Source: an uncultured Desulfospira sp. (GTDB lineage: Bacteria; Desulfobacterota; Desulfobacteria; Desulfobacterales; Desulfobacteraceae). Taken from it: DNA of 64,000 bases. Numbering within the stretch: position 1 is the stretch's first letter; every line of letters begins with the position of its first letter. The DNA lies in NCBI GenBank assembly GCA_963663165.1, contig OY760175.1:832001-896000 (forward strand), given 5' to 3'. Below the pieces are notes generated by a model. It made no database searches. It saw nothing but the letters and a program-made list of their open reading frames with translations, and was not told where the DNA came from. Of the stretch, positions 45,681 through 62,660 are shown piece after piece. Position numbers and translations under genes: made by a program.

Positions 45681-45824
45681 ATGGAGCAGTATGGGTTACT
45701 CATCGACTATCATTATTGTACGGGGTGCCATAGCTGTGAGGTGGCCTGCCAGCAAGAGCACAGTCTCCCTGCGGATACCTTCGGAATCACCGTAACGGAA
45801 TATGTTTTGAAAAACTGGTGGTGA
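45681..45824 (+). pseudogene. Truncated 4Fe-4S (DmsB/NrfC-like) subunit, N-terminal 47 aa only; absent from the ORF track
   Basis: RBS GGAGG; MEQYGLLIDYHYCTGCHSCEVACQQEH then stop. Confidence 0.8.
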
Positions 45825-46090
45825 TTGACCCGCGCATGTCCTGGGCCGCTACCCGTGCCGACCTGTGGCTGCGTCCCCGTCCCGGGACAGACGGCGCGCT
45901 GGCCCTGGGACTGCTCAATGTCATTATCAATGAAAACCTTTATGATAAGGAGTTTGTCGAGAAATGGACCCACGGCTTTGACGAACTCAAACAACGGGTT
46001 CAGGAATACCCGGTACAAAAAGTCTCCCAAATCACCTGGGTCCCGGCAGAAGATATCGTCAAGGCGGCCCGAAGGAAAATCCCGCAATGA
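45810..46090 (+). pseudogene. Internal fragment of a molybdopterin oxidoreductase catalytic subunit
   Basis: KLVVIDPR..ADLWLRPRPGTDGALALG..LYDKEFVEKWTHGFDEL..ITWVPAEDI; no N- or C-terminus. Confidence 0.85.
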
Positions 46091-46555: not shown

Positions 46556-47497
46556 TTATTTTATTCCCCCTACCCCCTGCAAAGCCGTCCGGTCTCTTTT
46601 TTGATCCAGCAAAAGGGCTTTGGTCAACCATTCTTTGAACAATTGAACGCCCTGTGTGGTTTGATGAGAATCAGGCCATGAAAAATAGTAACCGCCTGTT
46701 TTTATCGTGGCAAGGCCAAAGGGCGCTGCCAGCCGGCCGGAGGCCAGTTCCTCCCTTATCAGAAACAGATCCCCCAATGCCACCCCTATGCCTGCCGTGG
46801 CAGCCTGGAGAGCGGCATCATCCACCTCAAACACCTGCCCTTTATCCAGGGGAAGATCCGGCACGCCGTTCTGGTCGGCCCATGCGGCCCACTCCTTTAA
46901 ATCGGGGCTGTTATGGAGCAGCATGTGGTGTTTCAAGTCTCCAGGGCGGCAAAGGCCGGGATTACCCCGGGCGAGTTTGGGAGAACAGACCACAACGAGC
47001 TGTTCCGTGAGAATCACCTGCCGGTTCACGCCGGGGATTTTTTCACCCAGATGGGTGATGCCCGCATCAAAATTCTCCCTTGAAAAATCCACATTGACAC
47101 TGGATGTGGTAAACCGGACCTGGATGTCCGGGTAAAGGGCCTGAAAGAGATGAAGCTTTGGAATCAGCCAGCGGATGGCAAAGGTGGGGTGAACCTTTAA
47201 GTTTAAATCATGGGGATGGCGGGTCAGGCGCTCCAGGGCATTGGAGATAATGTCAAAGGCCCGGGCAAGGTCCCGGGAAAGCACCCTGCCCTGATCGGTC
47301 AGGACAAGTTCCCGGTGATGCCTGTGGAACAGCACCACGTTAAGCGCGGTTTCCAGAAGCTTGACCTGGCGGCTCACCGCGCCCTGGGTCACGCTCAGTT
47401 CCCGGGCCGCCCGGGTAAAGGACAGATGCCGCGCGGCCGCCTCAAACGCCTTGAGCCCGTTCAGGGACGGCAGATGGCAGATATGGGGATTTTGCAT
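46556..47497 (-). CDS. LysR-family regulator (GcvA-like)
   Basis: LPSLNGLKAFEAAARHLSFTRAARELSVTQGAVSRQVK. Confidence 0.93.
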   Translation of the reverse strand: MQNPHICHLPSLNGLKAFEAAARHLSFTRAARELSVTQGAVSRQVKLLETALNVVLFHRHHRELVLTDQGRVLSRDLARAFDIISNALERLTRHPHDLNLKVHPTFAIRWLIPKLHLFQALYPDIQVRFTTSSVNVDFSRENFDAGITHLGEKIPGVNRQVILTEQLVVVCSPKLARGNPGLCRPGDLKHHMLLHNSPDLKEWAAWADQNGVPDLPLDKGQVFEVDDAALQAATAGIGVALGDLFLIREELASGRLAAPFGLATIKTGGYYFSWPDSHQTTQGVQLFKEWLTKALLLDQKRDRTALQGVGGIK

Positions 47498-47510
47498 GAG
47501 TTTTTCTCAT
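47496..47510. promoter_or_regulatory. LysR-type binding site overlapping the regulator start
   Basis: ATGAG-N5-CTCAT dyad containing T-N11-A in the divergent lysR/rocD region. Confidence 0.55.
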
Positions 47511-47647
47511 CCTTTGGATGTCTTAAAATGATTTGACCGGTCTGTTTAATACTGTAATATTATAAAAATAAAAACCCTGTGCTTATATTTATCTTGAAAA
47601 AAAATCGGGCATAAGGCGTTTGCACCCCATCCATGAAAGGCAAAGCC

Positions 47648-48856
47648 ATGAAGACAAAAGAATATATCGACCTTGAAGACCGTTACGGTGCCAGAAACTA
47701 CAAACCCCTGGACATTGTTCTTTGCCGGGGCGAAGGCATCTGGGTATGGGATGTGGACGGCAACCGATACCTGGACTGCCTGTCTGCCTATTCCGCCGTG
47801 AACCAGGGCCACTGCCACCCCAAGATCCGTCAGGCCATGCTGGAACAGGCCGATAAACTGACCCTGACCTCCCGGGCCTTCCGCAATGACCAGCTGCCCC
47901 TTTTGTATGAGCAGTTGTGCCGCCTGACCAACTCCCACAAGGTGCTGCCCATGAACTCCGGGGCTGAGGCCGTTGAAACCGTGATCAAGTGTGCCAGAAA
48001 ATGGGGATATGAATCCAAAGGGATTGCCAGAGACCAGGCTCAGATCATCGTATGCCAAAACAATTTTCACGGCCGGACCCTGTCCATCATCGGGTTCTCC
48101 ACCGACGACAACGCCCGGGAAAATTTCGGCCCCTTTACCCCGGGGTTTGTCACCATTCCCTTTGGGGATGCCGCGGCCCTTGAAGATGCCATCACCCCCG
48201 ACACCGTGGCCTTTTTAGTGGAACCCATCCAGGGAGAAGCCGGTGTTATCATCCCGCCCAGGGGATATTTAAAGAAAGTTCGAAAGATCTGCACCCGGAA
48301 CAATATCCTGATGATTTTAGATGAAATCCAGACCGGCCTTGGCCGGACCGGCAAGCTTTTGGCCGAAGAACACGAAGGGGTTCAGGCCGACCTGACCCTC
48401 ATCGGCAAGGCGTTGTCCGGCGGATTCTACCCGGTCTCTGCGGTGCTCTCCAATGAGGCGGTACTCGGGCTGCTTCAGCCGGGCCAGCACGGCTCCACCT
48501 TTGGCGGCAACCCCATGGCCTGTGCCGTGGCCCGCATGGCTTTAACGGTTCTGGTTGAAGAAAATATGGTGGAAAATGCGGCACAGATGGGCACCTATTT
48601 TCTGGATCAGCTCAACAAAATCAAACACCCGGCCATCAAGGAAATACGGGGGATCGGCCTGATGATCGCCGTTGAACTTCATGAGGGGACAAAAGGCGGT
48701 GCCCGGGCCATTTGTGAGGATCTTTCCCACATGGGTATCCTGTGCAAGGAAACCCACACCTATACCATCCGCTTCGCCCCGCCCCTGATCATTGGAAAGG
48801 CCGATATTGACTGGGCCGTTGAAAAAATCAACCAGGCCTTTAAAAATTTAAAATAG
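47648..48856 (+). CDS. rocD: Ornithine aminotransferase
   Basis: [53 protein letters not shown]. Confidence 0.95.
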
Positions 48857-48947
48857 CAGGAAATTCCTTGAAATTCGGCCTATTTTTAAAGATATTGGTT
48901 TCTTGAATTTAAATTTGGTGGTTACACGGCTTGAGGAGGCATGGCCC

Positions 48948-49790
48948 ATGGGAATTGATGATATCATAATCGACAAAGAAAAATGCGTCAGGGACGGCCG
49001 CTGCGCCGCCATATGCCCATCCATCTTCCATGTCTCTTCTGAATCCGGCGGCTATCCGGTGGTGTTGGATTCCGAAAAGGAAATGTGCATGGGATGCGGG
49101 CAGTGTGTGGCCATCTGCCCTGCCGGTGCGATCACCAACGGAAACATCACCTTGGACACCTGCCCGGCCATTGAACCGGATTTGACCATCAATGAAAAAC
49201 AGATGATCCAGTTTTTAAGGTCCAGAAGAAGCGTTCGGGTCTATAAGCGAAAAGCCGTGGAACCGGCCGTGATCGAAAAACTCATTCGCATCGCCCAATA
49301 TGCCCCGAGTGCCGGCAACGGCCAGGAGGTTGAGTGGACGGTTTTCAACGGCCGGGCCCGGCTGGACAATTTCGTGAATGCAGCCATGGGATGGCTCAAA
49401 AAAGAGATTCAAGAGAATCCCACCGGCGAAATCGGAAGCTACGCCGCCCATCATGCCATTCTTAAGGATTGGGAAACCCGCAAACTGGATGGCCTGCTCT
49501 GGGGGGCGCCGGCCCTACTGATCGCCTCTTCGGATCAGGATTCCTGTGAAGCCATGGTCAATATCTCCCTGGCCCTGTCCTATCTGGACCTTGCCGCCCC
49601 AGCCCTGGGGCTTGGCACCTGCTGGACCGGCACCTTTAATGAGGCCATGGGCCACAACCCGTTAAAGGCAGAAATCGGTCTGCCCCCAAACCATACCCAC
49701 CACTATGCCATGATCCTGGGATATCCCAGGCACCCGTTTTTACGACTGCCCCCCAGAAAGCCGCCGGTTATTCACTGGCAGGCAAAATAA
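48948..49790 (+). CDS. Nitroreductase with N-terminal ferredoxin domain
   Basis: CVRDGRCAAICP, CMGCGQCVAICP, RRSVR, APSAGN, GLGTCW; RBS GAGGAGG. Confidence 0.9.
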   Translation: MGIDDIIIDKEKCVRDGRCAAICPSIFHVSSESGGYPVVLDSEKEMCMGCGQCVAICPAGAITNGNITLDTCPAIEPDLTINEKQMIQFLRSRRSVRVYKRKAVEPAVIEKLIRIAQYAPSAGNGQEVEWTVFNGRARLDNFVNAAMGWLKKEIQENPTGEIGSYAAHHAILKDWETRKLDGLLWGAPALLIASSDQDSCEAMVNISLALSYLDLAAPALGLGTCWTGTFNEAMGHNPLKAEIGLPPNHTHHYAMILGYPRHPFLRLPPRKPPVIHWQAK

Positions 49791-50027
49791 GGGCCTGACC
49801 GGCCACTTTCAGGCGATTAAAGGGCAAAGGGATTAATCAGAGCCCTGGTGGTCAACATTCCATATTGGGGATATTTCAATGTGGGTGTCGTCCTCATGGG
49901 AATTTTTAATGATCTGGCCTCCCGATAGTTTTACTATTGAATGCTGTTTTGAAATAGGCTTTGGGGGCGTGGATACGATAGTACTTGACCTTAATTAAAT
50001 ATGGTGTCCCACGAATCCCAAAGGATT

Positions 50028-50792
50028 TTAAAACCGGAGTGACAGGCAGCTCAGCCCGCCGTCCAGTTTTCTGAATTCCGAGGTGTCCACGGCCATGGTT
50101 TTGAGCCCGGCATCTTCGATCAATTTTCTTGTTTTGGGAAACCATTCCGGGACAATCACATAATCGTTGACCCGGATGCAGTTGGCCGCGTAACTCTCCT
50201 CTTCGGGAATCTCAATCATATCAAAGGAACGGAACTCTTTTTTATTTTTGAATTCGCCTGCCGCCAAAAGGATGTTCTCTTCCAGGTATGACAACCCGGT
50301 CTTTAAGTGAAGCATATCGCTCATTTCAACCATGGACCCGTCCATCCCGTGGGCACTCAAGGCCGCAATGAGCTGCGCCGCCCCTTCCCGGTTGGTCCGG
50401 TCCGAAAGGCCGATATAATAGTGGTCCTTTACCATCATCACATCCCCGCCTTCCAGGGTGCCCGGGGCCGTTATCTGCTCAATGTGGTCATAAAATCCGC
50501 TGAGGACGGCTGCCGTGTCTTCTTGTTCCCCCATCCGGGACCGGGCGCCGGGGCGGGTGACCATGGCAAAGGCCCGGGTGCAGACGGCCACATCCTCAAT
50601 AAAACAGGAATCCGGAAAATTCTCGTCCGGGTCCAGCACGGTCACGCCGACCCCGCAGGCCTCAAGGGCCCGGATATAGGTTTGGTGCTGTTCCAACGCC
50701 TTCGCATAATCAGGGGCGCCCAGTTCAGGCGAAGCGGTAATGCCGGCCGTTAAAGTAGATGCCGGGGTTTTAACAATGGCATATTTAAACAT
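50028..50792 (-). CDS. Dimethylarginine dimethylaminohydrolase (amidinotransferase/pentein family)
   Basis: PDSCFIED, LEGGD, HLKTG, GGLSCLS catalytic motifs; 254 aa. Confidence 0.9.
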   Translation of the reverse strand: MFKYAIVKTPASTLTAGITASPELGAPDYAKALEQHQTYIRALEACGVGVTVLDPDENFPDSCFIEDVAVCTRAFAMVTRPGARSRMGEQEDTAAVLSGFYDHIEQITAPGTLEGGDVMMVKDHYYIGLSDRTNREGAAQLIAALSAHGMDGSMVEMSDMLHLKTGLSYLEENILLAAGEFKNKKEFRSFDMIEIPEEESYAANCIRVNDYVIVPEWFPKTRKLIEDAGLKTMAVDTSEFRKLDGGLSCLSLRF

Positions 50793-50892
50793 AATCTTTC
50801 CCTTTGAATATTAGACTTACGGTATTGGCCAGATGAATATTCCTTTTTAAAGAGGATTTCAATTTTTGACCTTCAGCCTTCAGGCTAACTAC

Positions 50893-51696
50893 CTAAAGCA
50901 TTCCGGCCCTGAAGGCCTTTAAGTAGTTCATACAATACCCGTCCCTGCCGGCAAGGGCCTCAGCCGTTACAATGGCGGCCATCATCTTTTGGTCCAGGGG
51001 GTTGGCAATGGCGCCGTCCAGTCCCTTGGCAACGGCCATGGCCATGAAGGTCCGGTTCATGAGCCCCCTTGCAGGCATGCCAAAGGAGATGTTGGACAGC
51101 CCGCACATGGTGTGGATGCCTTCATGCCGGTCCATGAGCTTTTCAATGGTGTCTAAAAATGCCGTGCCAAAAGAGACATTGGTGCTGATGGCCTGAACCA
51201 GGGGGTCAACATAGATATTTTCAGGTTTCACATTGGCCTGGATCAGCTTATTGATCAGCGCATCGGCAATGGAAAGCCGTTCATCCACCGTGGCCGGGGT
51301 GCCTTTGTCGTTCATGCAAAGGGCAATGATTTTAAAGTCGCTGCCGGACACCATGGGCAGCATGGCTTCAAGCTTGTCCGTTTCAAGGGAGATGGAGTTA
51401 ATCATGGGGGGGGTGCCGGTTTTGGCGGACAGATAATTTAACGCCTGGTCCAGCACTTCAGGGTTGGGGCTGTCAACACAGACCGGGATGTCGCAGGCAT
51501 CAAGAATCTGGTCAATGACCCATTTAAGGCAACCGGTCTCCTTGTCCCTGAAGACCCCGGCATTGGCATCAATATAGGCAGCCCCGGCCCCGGCCTGATC
51601 CTGTGCAAGTTTCCGGATAAAGGCCCCGTCCTTTGTTTCAATGGCGGTCTGTACGGCCTTCCGGGTGGCGTTGATCAATTCACCGACGATAATCAT
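50893..51696 (-). CDS. Methyltetrahydrofolate:corrinoid methyltransferase (AcsE-like pterin-binding)
   Basis: MIIVGELINATRK, VDSPN, INSIS, YVDPLV, GLSNISFGMP. Confidence 0.92.
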   Translation of the reverse strand: MIIVGELINATRKAVQTAIETKDGAFIRKLAQDQAGAGAAYIDANAGVFRDKETGCLKWVIDQILDACDIPVCVDSPNPEVLDQALNYLSAKTGTPPMINSISLETDKLEAMLPMVSGSDFKIIALCMNDKGTPATVDERLSIADALINKLIQANVKPENIYVDPLVQAISTNVSFGTAFLDTIEKLMDRHEGIHTMCGLSNISFGMPARGLMNRTFMAMAVAKGLDGAIANPLDQKMMAAIVTAEALAGRDGYCMNYLKAFRAGML

Positions 51697-52865
51697 ATGG
51701 CATATTCTCCCCATTTTCTGTGAATCACAATGTAAAATCCGAGGCTGACCAGGACACTGACCGCGCACATCAGGAGCACCGGACCAAAACCTGTGCCGTC
51801 CTCACCCACCAAAAGGGCGGCCAGGGCCGGTCCCAACGTAAAGCCGATCCCCTGAAAAGCCGGCACCAGAACCGCATACCGGCCCGTATGGTCAAAGCCG
51901 CTGAGGGAGCCCAGCTGAAATATATCGGTTACGTTCCAGAACATGAAAAACAGGGTGGATCCCAGGATATAGGCCATGGGGGTCAATGATATTCCCAGGC
52001 CCGCCATGATCAGGATTTCAGCCACCAGGGTAATCATCAGGGGGCGGGCCTGGCCGAATCTACCCCCGAGCCAGGTGGCAAACAGGCAGCTGGTCAGGCT
52101 TGCCAGATTCCCCAAAGACAGGCAGGTCAGGACCGTACCGTCTGAAAGGCCCGATGCCAGCCCGATTCTCTCTGCATAAGCCCAGAAGGTATTGACATTG
52201 GCAGCGAAAAAACAGATGGCCCCCAGGCTGAGGAAACAGGGCAGCACCACCGGATTCTTAGCCTTGTGTTCAAGCTCCTCCGGGGTTTCAATGTATCTTG
52301 CGGGAAAAAACCGGATGAACACAAAGCAGACCAGCGTTACCAGGGCAAAGGCATAAAATATGGCCTCAACATTCCACGTTGCGGACAGATACGGCAGGGC
52401 AATCAGCTCAAGCCCGATAAAGGCAACCGAGAACAGATATAAAACAGCAAAGTTCCGGGTGGGGTTGCTTGTTCCGGACAGGCAGGCCAGCACCAGGGAC
52501 CAGTTGATTCCCTGGCTGAACCCGGCAAATATCCAGATCAGAACCAGGGGGGCCATGGTGTCGGGCTGAACCATGGCAATGAGCAGGTGGCTGATGACGG
52601 CCAGAACGGTCCCGGCGGCCAGGATCCAGCGCCGGTTCAAGGTGGTGATCACAAAGGTGCACAAAACGGAGGCCACGGTCATTCCCCCCATATACGCAGA
52701 CGCCACAAACCCGATTTTCTGTTCTGAATAGGCCCATTTCACCACCATCTCGTTGAGTATGACCGGCATACCGGCAATAAAGCAATTGGCAGTGATGCCG
52801 ACAATGATGGCCGTTACAATCACCATAGGACGATTAAATGTTGAATTTACCTGTTCTGGTTCCAT
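51693..52865 (-). CDS. MFS transporter
   Basis: 390 aa, about 12 hydrophobic segments, WAYAERIG; ATGA overlap with the AcsE-like gene. Confidence 0.85.
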   Translation of the reverse strand: MEPEQVNSTFNRPMVIVTAIIVGITANCFIAGMPVILNEMVVKWAYSEQKIGFVASAYMGGMTVASVLCTFVITTLNRRWILAAGTVLAVISHLLIAMVQPDTMAPLVLIWIFAGFSQGINWSLVLACLSGTSNPTRNFAVLYLFSVAFIGLELIALPYLSATWNVEAIFYAFALVTLVCFVFIRFFPARYIETPEELEHKAKNPVVLPCFLSLGAICFFAANVNTFWAYAERIGLASGLSDGTVLTCLSLGNLASLTSCLFATWLGGRFGQARPLMITLVAEILIMAGLGISLTPMAYILGSTLFFMFWNVTDIFQLGSLSGFDHTGRYAVLVPAFQGIGFTLGPALAALLVGEDGTGFGPVLLMCAVSVLVSLGFYIVIHRKWGEYAI

Positions 52866-52929
52866 AAGTCTTTTTCCAAAGTTAAAAATTCAGGGGGTGC
52901 CCCGGCAGGGCAATGCCGGCAAAAGGGCA

Positions 52930-53020
52930 TTTATATGAAAGTCTCACTAACATCTTGAGAAGACTTTCATTATTTGTTGTGGGCGGTTCTTGGTTGGATA
53001 ACCAAGGCGGCCCGTGGCCG
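52930..53020. repeat. Dispersed 91-bp structured repeat, copy 2
   Basis: Near-identical to 42495-42585; abuts the stop codon of the Isf gene. Confidence 0.9.
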
Positions 53021-53818
53021 TTAATCCTCATCAAATTCCAGCTGGGTATCCTCATCAGTGGCAAAATAGTCATAGGGCTTTTCAATGGCCAGGGGTTTTG
53101 TCCCGGAAATCCGCCGGAGAAACATGGTGTAGCGGCCGCTCTTTTCGAGCAGGTCGTGAACCTGCTTTTGCCGGGCCCCGGTTTTGATCAAAACAGCGAG
53201 CTGGGCGATGCCGGCGGCCATGTTCCGTGTGGATTTGACCAGGTAGGCCGTGGTTTCATCGTTGCCGGCGTGAAGGTCTTTCAGGGCATTTTTCCGGGGA
53301 TCCACGTGGGTCCATCCGCCGGCCCCGGTATAGGCACCGGGCCACTCCCCGGCAAAGGGCAGACAGCCCAGCATCATGGCATGGGCGTTGATAAAATTCA
53401 TGACCGATTCCTGGCCGGTGGCAATGCCGGTTCCCGAGGTGACGCACCCCACCACTTTCATCTGTTTGGAAAAAAATCCCTCCACCACGCTTTCGCCCAG
53501 CCGGTCAATAAAACATTTCAAATGCCCCGGGATTCCGGCGTGGTACACCGGCACGGAGTAAATCAGGGCATCGGCTTCAAGCCATTTGTCCCGCAGTTCG
53601 GCAAAATCATCCTCAAGCCGGCAGACCCCTAATTTTGAATGGCAGCGGTCGCAGGCCGTACAGGGAAGATACGTCCGGCCGCCGGTTTCATAAATTTCAG
53701 TGTCCACGCATCCGGGCACCGCCAGGGCTGCCGCCGCCAGTGCCTGGTCCAGCAGAAAACGGCTGTTGCCGCCCCTGCGGTTGCTTCCGTTGATTCCCAG
53801 TATCTTTATGGTTTCCAT
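53021..53818 (-). CDS. Iron-sulfur flavoprotein (Isf / flavodoxin-like)
   Basis: GINGSNRRGGNS, CTACDRC..C, SVPVY, LKCFIDR. Confidence 0.88.
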   Translation of the reverse strand: METIKILGINGSNRRGGNSRFLLDQALAAAALAVPGCVDTEIYETGGRTYLPCTACDRCHSKLGVCRLEDDFAELRDKWLEADALIYSVPVYHAGIPGHLKCFIDRLGESVVEGFFSKQMKVVGCVTSGTGIATGQESVMNFINAHAMMLGCLPFAGEWPGAYTGAGGWTHVDPRKNALKDLHAGNDETTAYLVKSTRNMAAGIAQLAVLIKTGARQKQVHDLLEKSGRYTMFLRRISGTKPLAIEKPYDYFATDEDTQLEFDED

Positions 53819-53832
53819 ATGCAGTTACCTGT

Positions 53833-55110
53833 TTAATAAACCCCGTATTTATAAACTGTTTCGGCCATGGCCATGACATTTTCCTTTTTGGCTTCCTTGG
53901 GGATTCCGGCCGATCCGTCAATGATCAGGCCGCCGGTATCCCCAAAAATATCAATCAGTTCTTTAACAGCATCAGCGGTCTGTTCCGGTGTGCCCGCAAT
54001 CAGCACCTGGGTGGGCACATTCCCCCAGAAGCACATGGTATCGCCAATGGCCTGCCGGGCCTTTTTTAAATCCACCACATCAAAATGCCCCCAGACCTTG
54101 CCGGCGGGAAGCTCGGTGAGAAACTCCAGCCGGTTGGTATAGGAGCCTTCAAAGAAGGGTATGGGGGTCAGATCCGCCTCGATCAGGGCCAGCAGAAGTT
54201 TTTTTAAGCCGGGCCAGTAGAATTCGGCAAACTGGGCGTTGGACATGAACGAGTCCGATCCCCGGTGAAGGGGGATGGAGACCGTTGTTCCGCCCATTTC
54301 TTTGGCGCTTGCAATGGCGTAATCTATAATGGTGGGGGTAATCACCTCTATGGTAGCCTTGAGTTTGTCCGGGTTATAGTACATGTCCATCATGGAACCC
54401 CGGATGCCCCGCAGATAATCGGAAACCCAGTCAAAGGGGGCATGGGCAAAAGAGGCCGACAGCCCGTTTTCCACGGGGAGGCCTTTTTGCTTTAAGGCTT
54501 CGGTGGTCCGGTCCAGCACCTCCAGCAGCTTGTTCATCTCCTCGCCGGCTTTGATCATTTTCCTGAGCATCTCCAGCACCTCGGGCCGGCTAAGGGCAAT
54601 GGCCAGCTCCCCCACCGGCGCATAGGCATGGGACATGGCCGCCAGGGGCGGGAACAGACCGAAAGGCTCAAGGACCGTGGCCATGCGCGGCCACAGCTTT
54701 CTAACCGTGAAATCCCCGGGGTCCTTTAAAAACAGGTCATACTCATCAGCGAGCAGGTACTCTTTTTCAACATACTGGAACTCCTGGGTATCCGGCAGAT
54801 TGTACCCGCCCCATTTATTGGTGGTAAGTCCCAGGATCTCCCCGACCTTTCCGGGAAATGCCGCAAACAGGCCGACCATGTCCCAGCCGTATTTCACGAT
54901 CTCTTCTTGAAATACCTTTGCTGCAAGTTCGGTGTCATAATAGGCCTGGGCCGGGGTTAAGCCCCCCTGGTGCAGGGAAAAGTAATCGTCGAGGATCACC
55001 ATGGGCACCCGGTCCGGCTGTTTGAGCCGCACCGCGTCCCAGACCCTTTTTAGGCGGGCCCGGTACTCTTTTTGTTCTTTGGTATGGGGTATTAGTTCTT
55101 GATTTTCCAT
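53833..55110 (-). CDS. Uroporphyrinogen-decarboxylase-family (MtaA/O-demethylase-like) methyltransferase
   Basis: PDRVP, APFD..LRG..DMY..P, IPLH, FAEFYWP, FFEG, CFWGNVP, GGLIID; next to a corrinoid protein. Confidence 0.85.
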   Translation of the reverse strand: MENQELIPHTKEQKEYRARLKRVWDAVRLKQPDRVPMVILDDYFSLHQGGLTPAQAYYDTELAAKVFQEEIVKYGWDMVGLFAAFPGKVGEILGLTTNKWGGYNLPDTQEFQYVEKEYLLADEYDLFLKDPGDFTVRKLWPRMATVLEPFGLFPPLAAMSHAYAPVGELAIALSRPEVLEMLRKMIKAGEEMNKLLEVLDRTTEALKQKGLPVENGLSASFAHAPFDWVSDYLRGIRGSMMDMYYNPDKLKATIEVITPTIIDYAIASAKEMGGTTVSIPLHRGSDSFMSNAQFAEFYWPGLKKLLLALIEADLTPIPFFEGSYTNRLEFLTELPAGKVWGHFDVVDLKKARQAIGDTMCFWGNVPTQVLIAGTPEQTADAVKELIDIFGDTGGLIIDGSAGIPKEAKKENVMAMAETVYKYGVY

Positions 55111-55213
55111 ATGGTTGTTCCCCGTTGCTGTTGTACTCCATTTTTTTTCAACCATTTGGCTTTTTTTGCAGGCTTTACAGCCCCAAAGCTAATGGCTAAC
55201 AGCTAATAGCTGT

Positions 55214-55846
55214 TCAAGCGATGGCCCAGTTTCTGGCTATACTCACCGCATCCATGGCCGTGGAGCCCCAGGCATCAGCCCCGATCTGGTCAGAGACCAG
55301 CTGGTTGACCGGGCCGCCGCCCACCATCACCTTCACATCGGTGAGGTTGGCCGCTTTGAGGGCCTGGATGGTCCGTTCCATGGGGTCAATGGCAAGGGTT
55401 AAAAATCCGCTCAACCCCACAATCTTAGCCTGGTGTTCCTCAACGGCCTTTACAAAATTTTCAGGCGGCACATCCACCCCTAAGTCAATCACCTCAAAGC
55501 CGTTCACATCCAGCATGAACACCACAATGTCCTTGGCAATATCATGGATGTCCCCCTGCACGGTTCCAAACACCACTTTACCGATTTTTTTGGTGTCGCC
55601 CTGGGCCTCCATAACGGGCTTGACCTTTTCGGCAATGGCCCCGAGAATATCGCCGGACACCATCAATTCGGGCAGAAAATATTCCCCTTTTTCAAAGCGC
55701 TCTCCAATGAGCTGCATGGCTTTGCGCCCCACATCCAGAATTTTTTGCGGGGATTCGCTGCCGGCCAGCAGTGCCTCGGTGATGCGGACGGCGTCGGTTC
55801 TGTTCAAGGTGGTAATGGCTTTAAATAATTCTTCGCTCATTTGCAT
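55214..55846 (-). CDS. Corrinoid (cobalamin-binding) protein
   Basis: Cap domain GEYFLPEL; GTVQGDIHDIAK (DxHxxG with G to A), DLGVDV, VGLSG, VMVGGG. Confidence 0.95.
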   Translation of the reverse strand: MQMSEELFKAITTLNRTDAVRITEALLAGSESPQKILDVGRKAMQLIGERFEKGEYFLPELMVSGDILGAIAEKVKPVMEAQGDTKKIGKVVFGTVQGDIHDIAKDIVVFMLDVNGFEVIDLGVDVPPENFVKAVEEHQAKIVGLSGFLTLAIDPMERTIQALKAANLTDVKVMVGGGPVNQLVSDQIGADAWGSTAMDAVSIARNWAIA

Positions 55847-55919
55847 TTCCTCATCATCATATCACTTATATATTGTAACTATTCAGCTAATGCTGAAAAT
55901 TAAGCAAAAACAGGGGCCA

Positions 55920-56025
55920 TAACTGTTCATCAGTGCTTCATATTTGTTTAGTCAGGACTTCGTAGCATACTTTTGCTATGTGAGAAGGCCTGAATGAGCG
56001 AAGATGGGGCACTGCTGAACAGTTA
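55920..56025. repeat. 106-bp palindromic MITE/REPIN-like element
   Basis: taactgttcatcagtgc / gcactgctgaacagtta termini (16/17); core gtagcatac-tttt-gctatgtgag. Confidence 0.8.
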
Positions 56026-57135
56026 CTATATTTTTTTTACCGCAGGCTTGTACTTAAAACCATAGCCCAAATACTCAGGCCCGAAAATTTTCAAGCCTTT
56101 TTCCGTTAAAAAGGCTTTGGGGGCCGGCAGAATCAGAACGGCCACCGCCCTTCCCTTTTCATGGTTGGGGTTGGTCACCGGTTCATCCGTATCTGTATCC
56201 ATCAGGCAGATCAAGTCCGGAATCGTAGCATGGACTTCGTTGTCCAGCCATGAAATCATGTTTTCATTCTTAAAATTAATTTTATAGGTATGGCCGGCAT
56301 ATCTGCCGGTTCCCCGAATCAGGATATCCCCGATGGTAAACCCCTCCTGGTTTTTCCAGGAAAAGTCTTCTATGGTTCCCCTGAAGGCCACAAATCCGCT
56401 GCCGGCCCCGGCAATGGCCTGGGCTGAGTCCTCCTGGGTCTGGCGCGCCAGCCGTAACACTTGCCCGAGTTTCAAGGCATAGGACACGGCGCCTTTAATC
56501 ACCGCCGGCCGCAGCACCTTCATTTCAAGGGCGTGATCCACGGCGGCAATATCATTGGCGCTGGCCACGGCAAGGGAACGGACCAGCTGTTCGGCCCGTT
56601 TGTCATCAATGATATTTTCACAGATGGCGGTCTCTCCAAAGGCATTGACCAGGACAATGGGGGATGCGGGCAGCCCGTTTAAATAGTAGGTGGAGTGGGT
56701 AATTTCAGGCACGGCCCGTCCGGCGGGGTCCGCATCAACGATAAAGCCCTGGATCATGGCCGCCACATAAAAGGACAAGGCGGAGTTGGCCCCGCCCATT
56801 TCACAGGAGATGGTCCCGTAAAAATCGGCGCCAAGGTAGGCTTTAAACCGATTTACGGCTGCCATAATGGGGTTTTCGGCCAGCCGGGGCAGCCGGTCGT
56901 ACTGCTGTTTTTCCTGTTCCGACACCGGGGATACGGCACCCAGAAAATAGGGGGTGCAGATCAGGGCATTGTCCGGGACCTCATCCACGGGAATAAGCCG
57001 GAACTGCCGGCCATGGGAAAGGGCCTCCTCAATGAGGTCCATCCCTTCCTGGATCTCTCCGCCGCCGCCGGTGCCAAGGATGGTACAGCCATATAAAATG
57101 TCGGTTAAATCCTGTCGGGTCAAATTTTTGATCAA
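56026..57135 (-). CDS. DUF917-family protein
   Basis: GCTILGTGGGG, EMGGANS, VDADPAGRAVPE, KNEN, PDLI, FGP; TTG start after GGAGAG. Confidence 0.85.
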   Translation of the reverse strand: MIKNLTRQDLTDILYGCTILGTGGGGEIQEGMDLIEEALSHGRQFRLIPVDEVPDNALICTPYFLGAVSPVSEQEKQQYDRLPRLAENPIMAAVNRFKAYLGADFYGTISCEMGGANSALSFYVAAMIQGFIVDADPAGRAVPEITHSTYYLNGLPASPIVLVNAFGETAICENIIDDKRAEQLVRSLAVASANDIAAVDHALEMKVLRPAVIKGAVSYALKLGQVLRLARQTQEDSAQAIAGAGSGFVAFRGTIEDFSWKNQEGFTIGDILIRGTGRYAGHTYKINFKNENMISWLDNEVHATIPDLICLMDTDTDEPVTNPNHEKGRAVAVLILPAPKAFLTEKGLKIFGPEYLGYGFKYKPAVKKI

Positions 57136-57312
57136 TGCTGCTCTCCAGAAATTTTCCGGGGGGACAACGCCCTGATCCCGGAATCAAAATATTTTTTGCA
57201 TTGTGCGTTTTGTCTTATGGGTTATAATTACCCGGGTAAAATATTTTGTCCTATACCTTAAAGGGTAGAAGGCGGGGTAACTTTACAAAAAAATGCATAA
57301 AAGAAACCGCCC

Positions 57313-59982
57313 ATGATCATCCAGACCAAACTGACAATGCCCCCCCTGAGGGAAAAAATGGTCCAGCGCAGCCAGTTGACCGGGATCATAGAACAGGGCA
57401 AAGACCACTCCTTGATCTTTATCACCGGACAGGCCGGGGCCGGCAAAACCTGCCTGGCGGTCCAGTGGCTTTCCCGGTACGAAAAACGGGCCGCCTGGTA
57501 TTCCCTGGACAATCAGGACAATGATCCGGATCTGTTCTCCCGGTACCTGTTATCGGCCATGCTCACGTGCAGCAAAAAAATTGCCCAGGCCTTCAGCCCG
57601 TTTCTCCAGGGGCAGAAAACCATTCCCATCCAAAAGGCCGTGCAGCGGATAATTGATGAGTTTGTGGACTTTAAAGACCATTTTTTTCTGGTGCTGGATG
57701 ATTACCACGCCATTGAATCAACCCAAATTCACGAGGCCATTCAATATCTTATTGAGTGCGCGCCGGCCTGCCTTCACCTGGTCATCCTCAGCCGGTCCGC
57801 CCTGCCCTTTCCCACAGCCCGGCTCACCGTGGGAAACCGGTTGATCCAGGTCAGTGCCATGGATTTAAAATTCAGCCTGGATGAAACCGCCTGTTTCCTG
57901 TCAGATCTCTTCAATATCCGGCTTTTGCCCGAACAGCTCAAAAAAATTTTTCAACTCACCGAAGGCTGGGTATCGGGGCTTCAGCTGGTGGGGCTCTCCT
58001 TGAACCGGCAGCCGCTTCAGGATCTTTCCAGAATCTCCCTTAAAGAGCACAAAACCTTTGCCATGGATTATTTCAGGGAAGAGGTGTTCCGGGTGCAGCC
58101 GGAACCGGTTCAGCAGTTTTTGCTCAAAACATCCATTCTGACCCGGTTTAATGCAACGCTTTGTGAAAACATCACCGGGATGAAAGATTCAGGTGCCATC
58201 CTTGAACAGCTGGACCGGAACAATATCTTCATCATTGCCCTTGACCCGTCCCGGGAGTGGTTCCGGTACCATGCCCTGTTTGCCGATTCCCTGAAAAAAC
58301 ACCTGAAACAAACCCATTCCGAACAGGTCCCGGATCTGGAGAAAAAAGCCGCGCTCTGGTACGCGGCCAACGATCATTTTGAGCTGGCCTTTATACACGC
58401 CCATGCCTCGGGGGATATCCATTTTCTGGCCGACGTGCTGGAAGACCATCTCATGTTCTATCTTCTGGCCTGCGAATTTGTCACGATTGCCCGGTGGCTG
58501 AACAAAATCCCCGACGCCCTGGTCAACCAGCGACTTATCCTGCTCTTATACCGGCAGCTGCTGGCAACGGAGCAGTGGAACCTGTCCCAGGCCGACTTTT
58601 TAATGAAAAATATCCGGGACAGGAAAGATGCGCTGCTTTCCCGGTATACCGGGGCAAAGCAGCAGCGGGCCAGGGATTTATGGCTGGCGGCAGAACACTC
58701 CAATGCCATTTTTAAACATCCGGACCGGCACGACGCCCATCAGCTGGCCCTGGACCTTAAAACCATCAGCCCCGGACATCTTTACATTAAAATGTATCTT
58801 TTGGATTTTATCCCCTGGAGCCTCATGGAAAGCGGCGAGACCCAGCAACTTGCCGGTACGGTTCTGGATAACCTTGCCTTCTATAAGCAGAAAAAACTCG
58901 GGTTCGGGGTATTTAACCTGCTCCGGATTTACGCCTCGATAGAGATCACCATGGGCCACATGTCCCGGGCAGAGGAAAAACTCAAAGCCGAACTGGACAT
59001 GGCCAAAGAGGCCGGTCTGTCAAAGCTGCCCTTCCGGTCGGATTACTTTGTCATCATGGCCATGATCCATGCCATGCGAAACGAACCGGACCTTGCATTG
59101 GAGAACATTTCTTCGGCCATGGCATACCTTGAAGAAACCAACCTGAACCTGATCCAGTGCGATGCCCATATCCAGCAGGCCTGTATCCTCCAGGCCATGG
59201 GCCGGGAGACCGTCGCCTCCTTTGCCATGGAAAAGGCCCTGGAAAAAAGCGCCGCCATGGGCAGCCCCTACCTTCTGGCCGTGGCCGAGTGTGCCGCCGC
59301 AAGGCTTGCGCTTTTTCAAGGGGAACCGTCCCGGGCCCGGCAATGGGCCGATGGCAGAAAACTGAATGTCAACGAGCCCTTTTCGGAATGTTTTGAATCC
59401 GAATGCCTGCTGGCCGCCCATTTGTGGGTGGACCAGGGCGAGTATGAAAAAGCGGTGCTGCTGCTGGAGACCCTGAGGCCAAGGTCGTTAAAGCGGCTGA
59501 GGGCCGAACCGGTCTTAAGGATTGATATCCTCCTTTCCGCGGCCCTGTACCGCCTGGACCGGAAAAAAGAGGCGTTTCTTTTCCTGGAATGCGCCGTCTG
59601 TTTTGCCGTGCCTGAAAAATACATTCAGCCCTTTATCCTCTTTTCCGCCTATATCGGGGAGTTGCTCCTGTCCCTTCAGAATGCGGCGGATCCCCTGATT
59701 CAGGCCCATGCCGGCGAACTTTGCCGCCAATGCGGCCTGGCGCATGGCCCTTGCCGGGAGAGCGGCAAAAGCATTCCGGTCAACAGCTTTGAAAGCCTGA
59801 CCCCACGGGAGGTGGATATTTTAAAAATGATGGCCTCGGGCCACTCCAACAACGATATTGCCGCCAATCTGTTTGTCTCGGTGAATACGGTCAAATTTTA
59901 CAATAAAAATATTTTTGCCAAGCTTGAAGTCAAAAACAGGGTCCAGGCGGGCATCAAAGCCCGGAAATTAAACATCATCTAA
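57313..59982 (+). CDS. MalT-like STAND/LuxR transcriptional regulator 1
   Basis: IIQTKL, GQAGAGKT, LVLDDYH, TEGW, WFRYHALF, C-terminal LTPRE..TVK LuxR HTH. Confidence 0.95.
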   Translation: MIIQTKLTMPPLREKMVQRSQLTGIIEQGKDHSLIFITGQAGAGKTCLAVQWLSRYEKRAAWYSLDNQDNDPDLFSRYLLSAMLTCSKKIAQAFSPFLQGQKTIPIQKAVQRIIDEFVDFKDHFFLVLDDYHAIESTQIHEAIQYLIECAPACLHLVILSRSALPFPTARLTVGNRLIQVSAMDLKFSLDETACFLSDLFNIRLLPEQLKKIFQLTEGWVSGLQLVGLSLNRQPLQDLSRISLKEHKTFAMDYFREEVFRVQPEPVQQFLLKTSILTRFNATLCENITGMKDSGAILEQLDRNNIFIIALDPSREWFRYHALFADSLKKHLKQTHSEQVPDLEKKAALWYAANDHFELAFIHAHASGDIHFLADVLEDHLMFYLLACEFVTIARWLNKIPDALVNQRLILLLYRQLLATEQWNLSQADFLMKNIRDRKDALLSRYTGAKQQRARDLWLAAEHSNAIFKHPDRHDAHQLALDLKTISPGHLYIKMYLLDFIPWSLMESGETQQLAGTVLDNLAFYKQKKLGFGVFNLLRIYASIEITMGHMSRAEEKLKAELDMAKEAGLSKLPFRSDYFVIMAMIHAMRNEPDLALENISSAMAYLEETNLNLIQCDAHIQQACILQAMGRETVASFAMEKALEKSAAMGSPYLLAVAECAAARLALFQGEPSRARQWADGRKLNVNEPFSECFESECLLAAHLWVDQGEYEKAVLLLETLRPRSLKRLRAEPVLRIDILLSAALYRLDRKKEAFLFLECAVCFAVPEKYIQPFILFSAYIGELLLSLQNAADPLIQAHAGELCRQCGLAHGPCRESGKSIPVNSFESLTPREVDILKMMASGHSNNDIAANLFVSVNTVKFYNKNIFAKLEVKNRVQAGIKARKLNII

Positions 59983-59990
59983 AGGCGTTA

Positions 59991-62660
59991 ATGATTGTCA
60001 GAACCAAATTAATTGTCCCGGAACAAAGATCTGAAATGGTTCTGCGGCAGCACCTTACAGACCGCCTGGCGGCGGGGGAGAAACGGCCCCTTATCCTGAT
60101 CACCGGGTGTGCCGGCGCAGGCAAAACCGCCCTGGCCGTAAAGTGGCTTTCCCAAAAAGACCGCCACCCGGCCTGGTACACCCTTGATCCCCGTGACAAT
60201 GATCCCGGCCTCTTTTTACGGCATCTTCTCATCAGCCTCTTGTCCATCAGCGATCCCATTGATAAGGCCGTCGGCCCCCTTCTCCAGGGACACAGATCCG
60301 TGGCCGACCCGGATGTGGCCGCCGCCGTTCTCGATGCCTTCAGCGCGGAGGCCGGGCCGGTTTACCTGGTGTTTGATAACTTTCATGTCCTGACCTGCCG
60401 CCCGATCCTGGATTTTGTGGCCCACCTGATCCAGTATGCCCCCAAGGCCCTTCACCTGGTCATCATCAGCCGGTCCCAGCCGCCGTTTCCCCTTTCCCGG
60501 CTGCGGGCCGGAAACCGGATAACCGAACTTCACCCGGAAGCGTTGAAATTCAGCCGGGACGAAACCCGCTTCTATTTGACCCGGGTGGCCGGGCTGGACC
60601 TGCGGCCGGACCAGGCCGACACCATTTTTGAGGCCACCGAAGGCTGGATATCCGGGCTGGTGCTGACCAGGGCGGCCCTGCACCGAAAGGATCCGGTATC
60701 AGCGATTTCCAATATCACGCCCTTTGTTGAGAATGCCGTTGTCAATGAATATTTCAACGAAGAGGTCATTGACACCCTCCCCCCGGACCTACAGGATTTT
60801 TTGCTTACAATCTGCATCCTGAACCGGTTTAATGCCGCACTGTGCCGGGAGGTAACCGGCCGGACCGGCTGCCGTGACGTCCTGACCACCCTGTACCGGA
60901 ACCATTCATTTATCATCTCCCTGGATGCCGGGGGCGAATGGTTCCGGTTTCACCGGCTTTTTGCCCGGGCCCTGAGAAACCATCCCCATGCCATATCCAC
61001 CCAAAAGGCCGTCCTGCTCCATAAAAAAGCGGCCTTATGGAACGCCCGGCACTATCTTCTCGACCAGGCCTTTGACCACGCCCTGAAAGCTTATGACACC
61101 GAATTTCTGGCAGACCTGATGGAAGATCACCTGATGTTTTATTTTCTGGAGTGCGACTTTGAACCGGTGTGCCGTCTGTTGGATGCCCTGCCGGCACAAC
61201 GGATTGACACCTCTTTGATCCTCTCGGTTTACCGGCTGATGGTGTTGATCTCCACTTGGGATCTGATCCCGGCCCCCGGGCTTTTCAAGGCCCTTGAAAG
61301 GCGGAAAACCGAACTGCTGGACCAGTGCCCGGACCGTAAAAAAGAATTTGCCCTGGCCCTGTGGGCCCTTGCCGGACACGCCATGGCCGCGGCCCATGAC
61401 CCGACGTTATGCCGCCTGGACCAGCTTACCCGGGACATTGACCACATGCCCGAAACATATCCGTTGCTCACGCTGTTTTTATCCGAGCTTCGGCTGCTGA
61501 TTCAACTTGACAGGGGAGACCTGTCCCTGTCCCACGCCTTTATTGAGGACCAGAAAGAGCTGTATCAGACACTGGAGATCGGGTTTGGCTATTTTACTCT
61601 GTTAAGGGCCTATGCCCAGATTGAGATCGCCATGGGAAACATGACCAGGGCCACGCAGCGATTGGGGCAGTGGTTTGACCAGGCCGCGGGAACCGGCATA
61701 TCCGCCGCCCCCTACCAGGCCGATTATTTTTATATGATGAGCCGCATCCGCTACCTGGAAAACCGGCTGGACAAGGCCCTTTCCAACATCAACAAGGCCC
61801 ATGATTTTTTAAGAACATCCCGGATCAATATTTTCCTTTGCGAAATTTACATCCAGACGGCGTTCATCCTCCAGGCCATGGGCCGGTCATCAACCGCCTT
61901 TTTTAATATGGAAAAAGCCCTGCACAGGGCCGACGGATCGGGAAGCCGCTATCTGATCCGGACCGCCCGGGCCGCCATGGCCAAACTTGGCCTGCTCCAG
62001 GGCAAACGCCAGGCGGCACAGGCCTGGTCAACGAAAAATCCCCTGTCATTGGATGAGCCCTTTTGTGAAGCCTTTGAATCCGACTGCCTGGTGCAGGCCT
62101 TTCTTCTCCTTGACCAGGCGCGGTTTCAAGAGGCCTGCCGCCTCATGGAAACCCTTCGGCCCCGGGCCCTGAAGCGGCACAGAAGAACGGCCGTGCTTGA
62201 AGCCGATATCATCCGGGCGGCAGCCTTGAACGGCCTGGGGGAAAAAGAAAACGCCGTGCGGATCCTGGAACTTGGCCTTTGCTTTGCCGTCCCCGAGCAA
62301 TACATCCAGCCGTTTGTGATCTACTCGCCCTATATTGCCGACCTTCTGATCACCCTTTCCAGTGCAACGGATCCCGTGGTCAAGGCCCATGCCGCCGTAA
62401 TCTGCGGCCACTGCCGCCTTGAAAAACCCCTGGAGCGGCCGCAGAAAACCATCCCCGTCACCGCCTTTGACAGCCTGAACCAAAAAGAGTTCGACATTTT
62501 AAAGCTCATCGACCTTGGCTGTTCAAACCGGGAAATCGCCCAGAAGATGCATATCTCCATCAACACGGTCAAGTTCTACAACAAATCCCTGTTCACCAAG
62601 CTGTCCGTCAAAAACCGGGTCCAGGCCGTCACCAGGGCAAGGCAGCTGAATATTTTTTAA
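59991..62660 (+). CDS. MalT-like STAND/LuxR transcriptional regulator 2
   Basis: IVRTKL, GCAGAGKT, LVFDNFH, TEGW, WFRFHRLF, LuxR HTH; same length (889 aa) as its neighbour. Confidence 0.95.
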   Translation: MIVRTKLIVPEQRSEMVLRQHLTDRLAAGEKRPLILITGCAGAGKTALAVKWLSQKDRHPAWYTLDPRDNDPGLFLRHLLISLLSISDPIDKAVGPLLQGHRSVADPDVAAAVLDAFSAEAGPVYLVFDNFHVLTCRPILDFVAHLIQYAPKALHLVIISRSQPPFPLSRLRAGNRITELHPEALKFSRDETRFYLTRVAGLDLRPDQADTIFEATEGWISGLVLTRAALHRKDPVSAISNITPFVENAVVNEYFNEEVIDTLPPDLQDFLLTICILNRFNAALCREVTGRTGCRDVLTTLYRNHSFIISLDAGGEWFRFHRLFARALRNHPHAISTQKAVLLHKKAALWNARHYLLDQAFDHALKAYDTEFLADLMEDHLMFYFLECDFEPVCRLLDALPAQRIDTSLILSVYRLMVLISTWDLIPAPGLFKALERRKTELLDQCPDRKKEFALALWALAGHAMAAAHDPTLCRLDQLTRDIDHMPETYPLLTLFLSELRLLIQLDRGDLSLSHAFIEDQKELYQTLEIGFGYFTLLRAYAQIEIAMGNMTRATQRLGQWFDQAAGTGISAAPYQADYFYMMSRIRYLENRLDKALSNINKAHDFLRTSRINIFLCEIYIQTAFILQAMGRSSTAFFNMEKALHRADGSGSRYLIRTARAAMAKLGLLQGKRQAAQAWSTKNPLSLDEPFCEAFESDCLVQAFLLLDQARFQEACRLMETLRPRALKRHRRTAVLEADIIRAAALNGLGEKENAVRILELGLCFAVPEQYIQPFVIYSPYIADLLITLSSATDPVVKAHAAVICGHCRLEKPLERPQKTIPVTAFDSLNQKEFDILKLIDLGCSNREIAQKMHISINTVKFYNKSLFTKLSVKNRVQAVTRARQLNIF

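Follow-up and report, generated by a model that had tools for sequence, protein, structure and literature searches.

The vanillate demethylase of Moorella thermoacetica (Mtv, MtvABC) and the archaeal MtoABC system share a layout of a substrate methyltransferase (MT1), a corrinoid protein and a second methyltransferase (MT2), in which MT1 is a long protein of the UroD fold with LHRG and FYWP motifs; the cluster described here has the same layout and the same kind of MT1. The Cdm system of Acetobacterium dehalogenans (CdmBCA) likewise has three components and is reported, in the accessible part of its description, to be zinc-free (PMC13222342). According to that part of the source, most clades of UroD-fold MT1 proteins have no known substrate, and the known substrates of the characterized ones are aryl ethers or haloalkanes. 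The cluster lies in a 64,000-nucleotide stretch of DNA from an uncultured Desulfospira sp. (assembly GCA_963663165.1, contig OY760175.1, positions 832,001 to 896,000; the whole stretch is called the window, and coordinates without a prefix refer to it), where a gene of the DUF917 family precedes genes for a corrinoid protein, an MT1 and an MT2. It very probably encodes a functional demethylase linked to DUF917, and genes in and around related loci point, more tentatively, to a substrate derived from arginine.

A PROBABLE THREE-COMPONENT CORRINOID DEMETHYLASE

The genes on which the argument turns are the following.

56026..57135, minus strand: DUF917 (S-Me-THD-like) protein, 369 aa, TTG start (PF06032 141.7 bits, PF20906 180.7 bits)
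55214..55846, minus strand: corrinoid (B12) carrier protein, 210 aa, motif DIHDIA (PF02310 and PF02607)
53833..55110, minus strand: MT1, UroD-fold substrate methyltransferase assigned to the MtvB/MtoB/CdmB group, 425 aa (PF01208)
53021..53818, minus strand: Isf-like flavoprotein with a Cys cluster motif (PF03358)
51693..52865, minus strand: MFS transporter, putative importer (PF07690)
50893..51696, minus strand: AcsE-like methyl-corrinoid:tetrahydrofolate methyltransferase (MT2), 267 aa (NF005719 316 bits, cut-off 259)
50028..50792, minus strand: DDAH-like enzyme (NF045658 355 bits, cut-off 450; full-length match to 3RHY)
48903..49790, plus strand: Fer4-nitroreductase (Pfam)
47633..48856, plus strand: ornithine aminotransferase RocD (TIGR01885 543 bits, cut-off 378)

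The initial annotation of the window had described the first seven as a co-oriented run divergent from two MalT-like genes, and coordinates and Pfam/NCBIfam matches bear this out; a LysR gene, rocD and the Fer4-nitroreductase gene at 46556-49790, which converge on DDAH, had been overlooked. Its further proposal, that a substrate methyltransferase, a corrinoid protein and a tetrahydrofolate methyltransferase form one set, is supported by family membership, and the set is co-conserved with DUF917. The corrinoid protein is 62-72% identical to its partners in other loci of the MT1 clade defined below, and its DIHDIA motif is a G-to-A variant of DxHxxG, DxHxxA being found also in six other clade loci and two non-clade loci. 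MT2 is 65% identical to the MT2 of clade locus L024. Judged by their sequences, MT1, the corrinoid protein and MT2 very probably make up a three-component corrinoid demethylase.

Among solved structures, the best sequence match of MT1 (METHYLTRANSFERASE) is CdmB, the chloromethane MT1 (9RUI, E 1e-31). The MT1 model (pLDDT 90.8) has the UroD/MtaA barrel fold and superposes on 4AY7 with a Z of 24.4 and an rmsd of 3.5 A over 315 residues at 18% identity; CdmB was not listed among its Foldseek or VIA-align matches. Identity with HemE was ruled out (TIGR01464 37.6 bits vs 303; structural identity 15-17%), as was a zinc enzyme of the MtaA/MtsA type, given that MT1 has FFEG in place of the HICG or HHSD of three MtaA/OdmB-like proteins (HICG being that of two MtaA-like paralogues aligned with it), contains no HxC zinc motif and scores 45-57 bits against MtaA-type models with cut-offs of 235-244 (TIGR01463 45.6 vs 235). 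Two ESM Atlas searches returned the same families only. From sequence and model together, MT1 is assigned to the MtvB/MtoB/CdmB group of ∼420-aa UroD-fold substrate methyltransferases.

In a tree of 91 MT1 sequences (a quick tree with SH-aLRT support only and no characterized enzyme among its rows), the window MT1 falls inside a 15-row clade of its own (SH-aLRT 100). Around it some 45 database proteins form a group of 57-69% identity, the named ones being Anaerolineales proteins. Every clade sequence (60/60, a set that includes 46 proteins placed by identity) has Asp41, which lies where the first strand of the barrel is predicted to end; among 142 other sequences Asp is not one of the three commonest residues there. 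His282 of the LHRG motif is conserved in 95-98% of clade and non-clade sequences alike. Searches for close members of the clade came up empty in 400 genomes of the phylum to which the host belongs (best match other than itself 499 bits vs 768), in 301 genomes of the phylum of genome G788 (best 385 bits) and in the genomes behind loci L001 and L002.

An ordinary MtvB/MtoB-like aryl O-demethylase for methoxylated aromatics, with DUF917, DDAH and rocD as neighbors gathered in a variable region, would be the most conventional reading of such an MT1. MtvB is the closest-looking characterized sequence in supplementary file 5 of PMC13222342, with 78/205 ungapped C-terminal identities counted by eye and the LHRG, FYWP and EG motifs shared on the same visual comparison; the mto cluster, in the accessible part of its description, also has an MFS gene (PMC8630106), and the region 47463-85790 is absent from the corresponding site in a genome of the same genus (G213). 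The initial annotation had regarded clustering with characterized aryl O-demethylases as telling against a new pathway, and MT1 does belong to the same broad group as MtvB and CdmB, but reaches only ∼38% over the C-terminal half. Since CdmB and MtoB are themselves only 31% identical and differ in substrate (PMC13222342, in the part available), this level of identity fixes the chemistry, methyl transfer to Co(I), and not the substrate. The linkage to DUF917 described below is restricted to the clade and involves two DUF917 lineages, and clade loci carry amino-acid-type Lrp/AsnC regulators and family-5 binding proteins, so that a simple aryl O-demethylase is considered very improbable.

CO-CONSERVATION OF DUF917 WITH THE MT1 CLADE

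A metagenome scan with an alignment of the 57-69% MT1 group yielded 79 loci, in which matches to window genes were found for the corrinoid protein (46), MT2 (15), DUF917 (9), the Isf-like flavoprotein (9, of which 4 are short, weak and in non-clade loci), the nitroreductase (8) and rocD (4). All nine loci with DUF917 belong to the clade of the window MT1. In a count that takes flank length into account, from which 10 loci with a partial or broken MT1 were removed and to which L054 and L061 were restored (their best match being a clade member), DUF917 lies by MT1 in 9/11 clade loci and 0/35 others with at least 1.3 kb downstream, the misses being L025 and L035. The corresponding figures are 7/9 vs 0/29 at 2 kb or more, 5/6 vs 0/25 at 3 kb or more and 4/5 vs 0/14 at 5 kb or more. 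The linkage of DUF917 to MT1 exceeds chance. In place of MalT, the clade loci carry Lrp/AsnC or GntR regulators.

The window DUF917 is only 28-32% identical to the seven full-length MT1-linked DUF917 proteins, which are 64-82% identical to each other; it shares 55-62% with proteins of marine aerobes (Cognatishimia, Ruegeria, Shewanella), which fall in the same clade. In a 75-row DUF917 tree, the window and MT1-linked types occupy separate well-supported clades, and an AU test on a 34-row subset rejects a single DUF917 clade (p-AU 2e-107). The pairing thus arose at least twice, two DUF917 lineages having come together with a single MT1 clade. Such repeated joining is better evidence of a functional link than a pairing kept through common ancestry would be.

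Two accessory genes recur with them. The Isf-like flavoprotein is 44% identical to partners in L019, L020, L025 and L027, and its gene also adjoins DUF917 in L190, L191, L192 and L194, which have no MT1; the Fer4-nitroreductase, 28-30% identical to genes in L019, L020, L021, L025 and L054, recurs by the MT1 clade and is also found near DUF917 in L002. Because both travel with DUF917 in several loci that lack MT1, they are taken as general DUF917 partners.

The model of the window DUF917 (pLDDT 92) has a structural match to 2O3I only (TM 0.76). The Pfam name of the family is S-Me-THD-like and NCBIfam holds desulfurase models for it, so the mention in the initial annotation of an S-methyl thiohydantoin desulfurase was right at the level of the family. 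Such an activity could free methanethiol from S-methyl thiohydantoin during S-methylergothioneine breakdown, with MT1 capturing the methyl group; alternatively MT1 could demethylate an aryl thioether directly, as some O-demethylases of the superfamily accept aryl methyl thioethers. The scores speak otherwise, the window protein lying far below both desulfurase cut-offs (88.6/450 and 83.8/440 bits for the two models, which are NF058532 for the S-methyl thiohydantoin and NF058529 for the thiohydantoin desulfurase) and the other MT1-linked DUF917s lower still. In the desulfurase pathway a thiourocanate hydratase of the urocanase family acts upstream, and no urocanase-family gene (PF01175) was found in the host genome (G000, 96.7% complete), control genomes being positive in 6/14 cases; the annotated clade loci contain no lyase or hydratase gene. 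With FFEG where HICG or HHSD would stand and no HxC motif for thiol activation, MT1 does not support the MtsA and methanethiol logic of the initial annotation, and an S-methyl route is highly improbable.

DUF917 does not require MT1, as no corrinoid or MT1 gene was found by DUF917 in 20 other DUF917 regions examined. A scan of genome contigs with a single DUF917 protein gave two loci from 49 candidates, and one of viral contigs gave 0 of 34. Several of the other regions are of interest in themselves. In L002 a DUF917 51% identical to that of the window lies ∼6 kb from a corrinoid protein and an MttB-like frame (7807-9492), the latter ending at 327 aa, as expected if the stop were a pyrrolysine codon. 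Roseobacter-group plasmids L127 (10071-16146) and L128 (10072-16107) carry a compact unit of LysR, a PotD-type ABC transporter and a DUF917 60% identical to that of the window, with almost no other enzyme nearby, and hence offer a clean system for finding the substrate of this branch. In the Bacillota (L177-L183), DUF917, in up to two paralogues, is found with PucR, peptide ABC genes, several hydantoin racemases and M29-like hydrolases. A distant DUF917 in L012 (1030-8378) lies with an NCS1 permease and aminotransferase, sugar isomerase-like, KDG-kinase-like and KDG-aldolase-like genes, a set that, speculatively, would fit the breakdown of a sugar-substituted hydantoin (e.g., 3-deoxyglucosone-arginine hydroimidazolone) to 2-keto-3-deoxygluconate.

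ARGININE AND ORNITHINE GENES BESIDE THE CLADE

Six of the 16 clade loci carry a rocD, amidinotransferase or cyclodeaminase-like gene. In L019, L022, L026 and L061 rocD stands beside MT1 and DUF917, and the L019 copy passes TIGR01885. The order in L019 and L026 is MT1 (followed in L019 by binding proteins), DUF917, an isochorismatase-family hydrolase, rocD, a 439-aa P-loop protein and ABC genes; L022 and L061 open with the same gene order. The isochorismatase-family hydrolase is encoded directly 3′ of DUF917 in these four loci and one short gene later in L020 and L021. After DUF917, L021 has a short MIase-like gene, the isochorismatase, an amidinotransferase (E 1e-119 to SxtG, 8e-104 to human AGAT) and a histamine-dehydrogenase-like gene, while L034 has a cyclodeaminase-like gene and also two racemases and a nitroreductase/DUF6092 pair. 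In 60 non-clade loci there was no rocD, DDAH, isochorismatase, P-loop protein, amidinotransferase, cyclodeaminase, racemase, CtlX or DUF917. The P-loop protein (L019 15144-16463, L026 4177-5499) has no Pfam or NCBIfam match and PDB matches at chance level only; it may belong to the arginine synthetase ArcE family (TK2200), an unconfirmed label. ArcE is described as a putative protein that carries a GTPase annotation and occurs in Chloroflexi (PMC11032458).

The window itself has RocD, which passes TIGR01885 and scores 569 against the 656 of the stricter NF003145, and the DDAH-like enzyme, which aligns with Pseudomonas DDAH (3RHY) over residues 1-254 (E 5.9e-97, 327 bits) and retains what we take to be the catalytic Glu, His and Cys. 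Its score below the NF045658 equivalog cut-off is similar to the 344 bits of the copy in a rocD-ctlX locus of family member G1127. That locus (L226 12696-17268) has the order LysR-rocD-DDAH-ctlX, a compact methylarginine-to-ornithine locus in which no DUF917 was found. The window rocD is 78-86% identical to those of family members and, because it is native to the family, its position beside the module is regarded as a separate event. On these comparisons, the module appears to have settled within a methylarginine-type locus that was already there. Among the DUF917 relatives, arginine or ornithine genes lie nearby in L128 (CtlX, on a Sulfitobacter plasmid), L179 (Ord/OrtB) and L002 (arginine decarboxylase), and L001, L127, L177, L178 and L180 have only transporters, PucR/LysR regulators, racemases or M29-like genes by DUF917. 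The initial annotation had held that the substrate could not be determined from sequence; the neighbors constrain it more than that and point to arginine and ornithine, although the compound itself can only be inferred.

Two further substrate classes are compatible with part of this gene content. The first comprises N-methylated compounds derived from ornithine or proline (an amino-imidazolone, a hydantoin or a cyclic dipeptide), the ring of which DUF917 would open or cleave and from which MT1 would take the N-methyl group. A 2-substituted imidazolinone is the closest chemical analog of the known DUF917 substrates, and DUF917 occurs widely with hydantoin racemases, M29-like hydrolases, AroM, nitroreductases and peptide ABC transporters, a pattern also seen in L034 and, in the accessible part, in an independent survey (10.1101/2023.09.25.559410). 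The window cluster, in contrast, has neither racemase nor hydantoinase and the host genome yields no racemase match; the initial annotation had already remarked on the lack of hydantoinase and oxoprolinase genes, one PF01968 gene lying far off at C1:4435762. DDAH and the amidinotransferase would also be left unexplained, and we know of no common natural N-methyl compound of this shape, so that such a substrate seems quite unlikely.

The second is creatine or creatinine. Creatinine is the 2-imino analog of thiohydantoin and might be deiminated by DUF917 to N-methylhydantoin; alternatively, MT1 might demethylate creatine to guanidinoacetate for an amidinotransferase or DDAH-like enzyme. The AGAT-like amidinotransferase of L021, an NCS1 permease in L029 and the isochorismatase-family genes of six clade loci, whose family includes N-carbamoylsarcosine amidase, would all find a place in such a route. 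RocD and the cyclodeaminase would be superfluous to it, the isochorismatase is closest to YcaC and the host genome has no amidinotransferase match; a creatine or creatinine route is therefore judged very unlikely.

PROPOSED SUBSTRATE AND MECHANISM

The preferred reading is that the substrate is an arginine-derived guanidino compound, which would undergo corrinoid N-demethylation, guanidino hydrolysis and ornithine transamination; we put this forward tentatively, as having slightly less than an even chance of being right. Symmetric dimethylarginine (SDMA) is the leading single candidate, though taken by itself an unlikely one. DDAH accepts asymmetric dimethylarginine and N-monomethylarginine and not SDMA, in the accessible part of PMC6769906, and SDMA is favored because a single demethylation would make it a DDAH substrate. 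The gene order of L019 and L026 can be read as the same sequence of steps, namely demethylation, hydrolysis of the guanidino carbon, removal of the carbamoyl group and transamination of ornithine.

In the proposed pathway the MFS transporter would import the methylated arginine derivative. One of the RACo activases of the host genome, a pairing that is conjectural, would generate Co(I), for which the Isf-like flavoprotein and the nitroreductase may supply electrons; five RACo (PF14574) matches above cut-off lie elsewhere in the genome, two with stops inside the match, and none lies within the cluster itself. MT1 would then present the N-methyl group to Co(I), with Asp41 anchoring the guanidinium and His282 acting as the acid, roles suggested by conservation and by predicted strand ends; an anchoring carboxylate and a general acid would fit a cationic substrate. 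MT2 would pass the methyl group to tetrahydrofolate for oxidation or acetyl-CoA synthesis. In the thiohydantoin-desulfurase relatives of DUF917, water takes the place of the leaving group at an N-C(=X)-N carbon, and DUF917 may by the same chemistry act as an amidine or guanidino-carbon hydrolase; DDAH would convert monomethylarginine to citrulline. RocD would finally convert ornithine to glutamate semialdehyde.

Several observations weigh against an arginine-derived substrate or against the link on which it depends. The co-conservation that the initial annotation had looked for in both DUF917 and DDAH holds for the former and fails for the latter (DDAH 0/79); MFS (0/79) and MalT (1/79, a 51-aa piece) are not co-conserved either, and DDAH, present in 63/150 genomes of the family, may be a passenger. 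The basal pair L025/L027 has no DUF917 or ornithine gene in 2.2 kb downstream, nor has L035 in 8.2 kb, though the neighbors of L034 recur there at 99-100% identity in another order. The nine DUF917-bearing loci collapse to about six sequence groups and, because five of these share one subclade, only about three independent lineages remain, L034 and the window included, so that statistics are unwarranted. Close DUF917 relatives occur in aerobes and Bacillota with no corrinoid gene nearby, and a strong hairpin repeat (z -4.3) between DUF917 and the corrinoid gene could uncouple DUF917 from the rest. A tblastn search of the host genome gave no match to CtlX, amidinotransferase or racemase and only 27% identity for the isochorismatase; the step from citrulline to ornithine is consequently without a candidate. 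A search there for the MttB and MtbB families was likewise negative (MtmB was not searched), and methylamines freed by DDAH would be without an identified route. A guanidinium N-methyl group is, moreover, a poor methyl donor, and the substrates of the characterized MT1s in this group are aryl methyl ethers or haloalkanes, Cdm being inactive on methylamines in the accessible part of its description (PMC13222342). The literature consulted contains no report of N-demethylation by an MT1 of this group.

Neither the demethylation of methylarginines or creatinine by corrinoid systems nor an association of DUF917 with corrinoid genes is the subject of any paper found in a search that left subscription journals largely uncovered. 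It is rather doubtful that all of the following hold together: a first anaerobic B12-dependent demethylation of methylarginines including SDMA, a first N-demethylating MT1 of the MtvB/CdmB group without pyrrolysine or the MttB fold, and a DUF917 that is a new guanidino hydrolase recruited twice. If an arginine-derived substrate is correct, methylated arginines from protein turnover would serve as methyl donors for anaerobes, giving a route for C1 units and nitrogen in anoxic decay, and methylated arginine derivatives, demethylated without oxygen, would be a new substrate class for corrinoid demethylases. A large DUF917 branch of marine aerobes and Bacillota would likewise gain a function, in a family known so far only for desulfuration. 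The arginine and ornithine neighbors in any case provide the MT1 clade with a short list of substrates, testable by a simple Co(I) assay.

ORGANIZATION OF THE LOCUS AND HOST GENOME

The remaining features of the locus are as follows.

46556..47497, minus strand: GcvA-like LysR regulator, divergent from rocD
52929..53025: second intergenic repeat, ∼95 bp, between the Isf and MFS genes (genome-wide family)
55873..56037: palindromic intergenic repeat, ∼155 bp, between DUF917 and the corrinoid gene (genome-wide family)
57313..59982, plus strand: MalT-like LuxR regulator 1
59991..62660, plus strand: MalT-like LuxR regulator 2, tandem paralog

The two MalT-like LuxR genes are 42% identical to each other, and regulator 1 is tied to the cluster through position only. 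Two gene starts are revised: MT1 starts at the ATG at 55110, the 425-aa form (P0121) being that of the database, and MT2 likely starts at the ATG at 51696, overlapping the MFS stop (ATGA). The window MFS protein has its best plasmid match at 33.5%. Both intergenic repeats resemble MITE or REP elements; the ∼155-bp repeat (RNA fold -47.8 kcal/mol) has 120 BLAST matches in the host genome and dozens in G213, and the ∼95-bp repeat has 278 in the host genome and belongs to a family abundant in G213 as well. A scan for promoters and terminators was uninformative, with 24 promoter-like sites vs 12.4 +/- 4.2 in shuffles and 27 terminators vs 24.7. Gene GC within the cluster is 0.53-0.57, near the 0.52-0.53 of three housekeeping genes. 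At 45713-46090 only a short fragment is left of a molybdopterin oxidoreductase-like gene, whose counterpart at that site in G213 is complete (765 aa).

The host is a sulfate reducer, as the initial annotation had supposed, with a dsrA match of 603 bits vs a cut-off of 393. Its genome has what we take to be a CODH/ACS-like gene run at C1:2.80 Mb, the region in which an AcsE paralog matches, and contains nine corrinoid-protein matches, three long UroD-fold matches and a single DUF917. At least five more corrinoid methyltransferase clusters lie on C1, at 3.76 Mb, 3.33 Mb, 6.69 Mb, 4.24-4.27 Mb and 0.97 Mb; these include two long UroD-fold MT1 genes (46% and 38% identical to the window MT1) with TRAP-like transporters, and also OdmB-like MT1 genes. 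The cluster was found again at 99.8-99.9% identity in G233, of the same family and another genus, on a 59.7-kb contig (C3; L009-L011) that spans 26909-62906 of the window, carries the window housekeeping genes back to 26909 and ∼17 kb of stacked insertion sequences of the host type, and has a 1.9-kb insertion sequence at 49992-49997. As evidence of co-conservation or gene transfer this contig was rejected; it is probably a mis-binned contig of a sister strain and was not counted.

COMPARISON WITH DESCRIBED SYSTEMS

In contrast to Mtv and Mto, the window system has the clade-specific Asp41, DUF917 and arginine/ornithine neighbors, and no aromatic context was found. CdmB differs in lacking the His of the LHRG motif (VWYN is aligned with it), and in the accessible part of its description it has a hydrophobic haloalkane channel and there is no mention of DUF917. 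The zinc methyltransferases MtsA, MtaA and CmuA have their fold in common with MT1 and differ in the HxC zinc motif, which MT1 lacks.

With the thiohydantoin and S-methyl thiohydantoin desulfurases, the window DUF917 shares both Pfam domains and the 2O3I fold, but it scores at about one-fifth of their cut-offs, its host has no urocanase-family match and it is coupled to a corrinoid system. The DUF917-racemase-AroM-ABC clusters that accompany cyclodipeptide-oxidase-like nitroreductases (10.1101/2023.09.25.559410, in the accessible part, the main text of which does not contain the word corrinoid) have DUF917, a nitroreductase and peptide-type transport in common with the loci described here; L034, with its racemases and DUF6092, resembles them, unlike the window, which has neither racemase nor AroM. 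Like the DDAH-CtlX-RocD loci (those of Pseudomonas DDAH and of G1127), the window has DDAH and rocD, but it has no ctlX, its DDAH is inverted relative to rocD and DDAH ends the DUF917-corrinoid run. The three-component architecture is thus already known from other demethylases, and what appears to be undescribed is the link, specific to this clade, with DUF917 and with the breakdown of ornithine.

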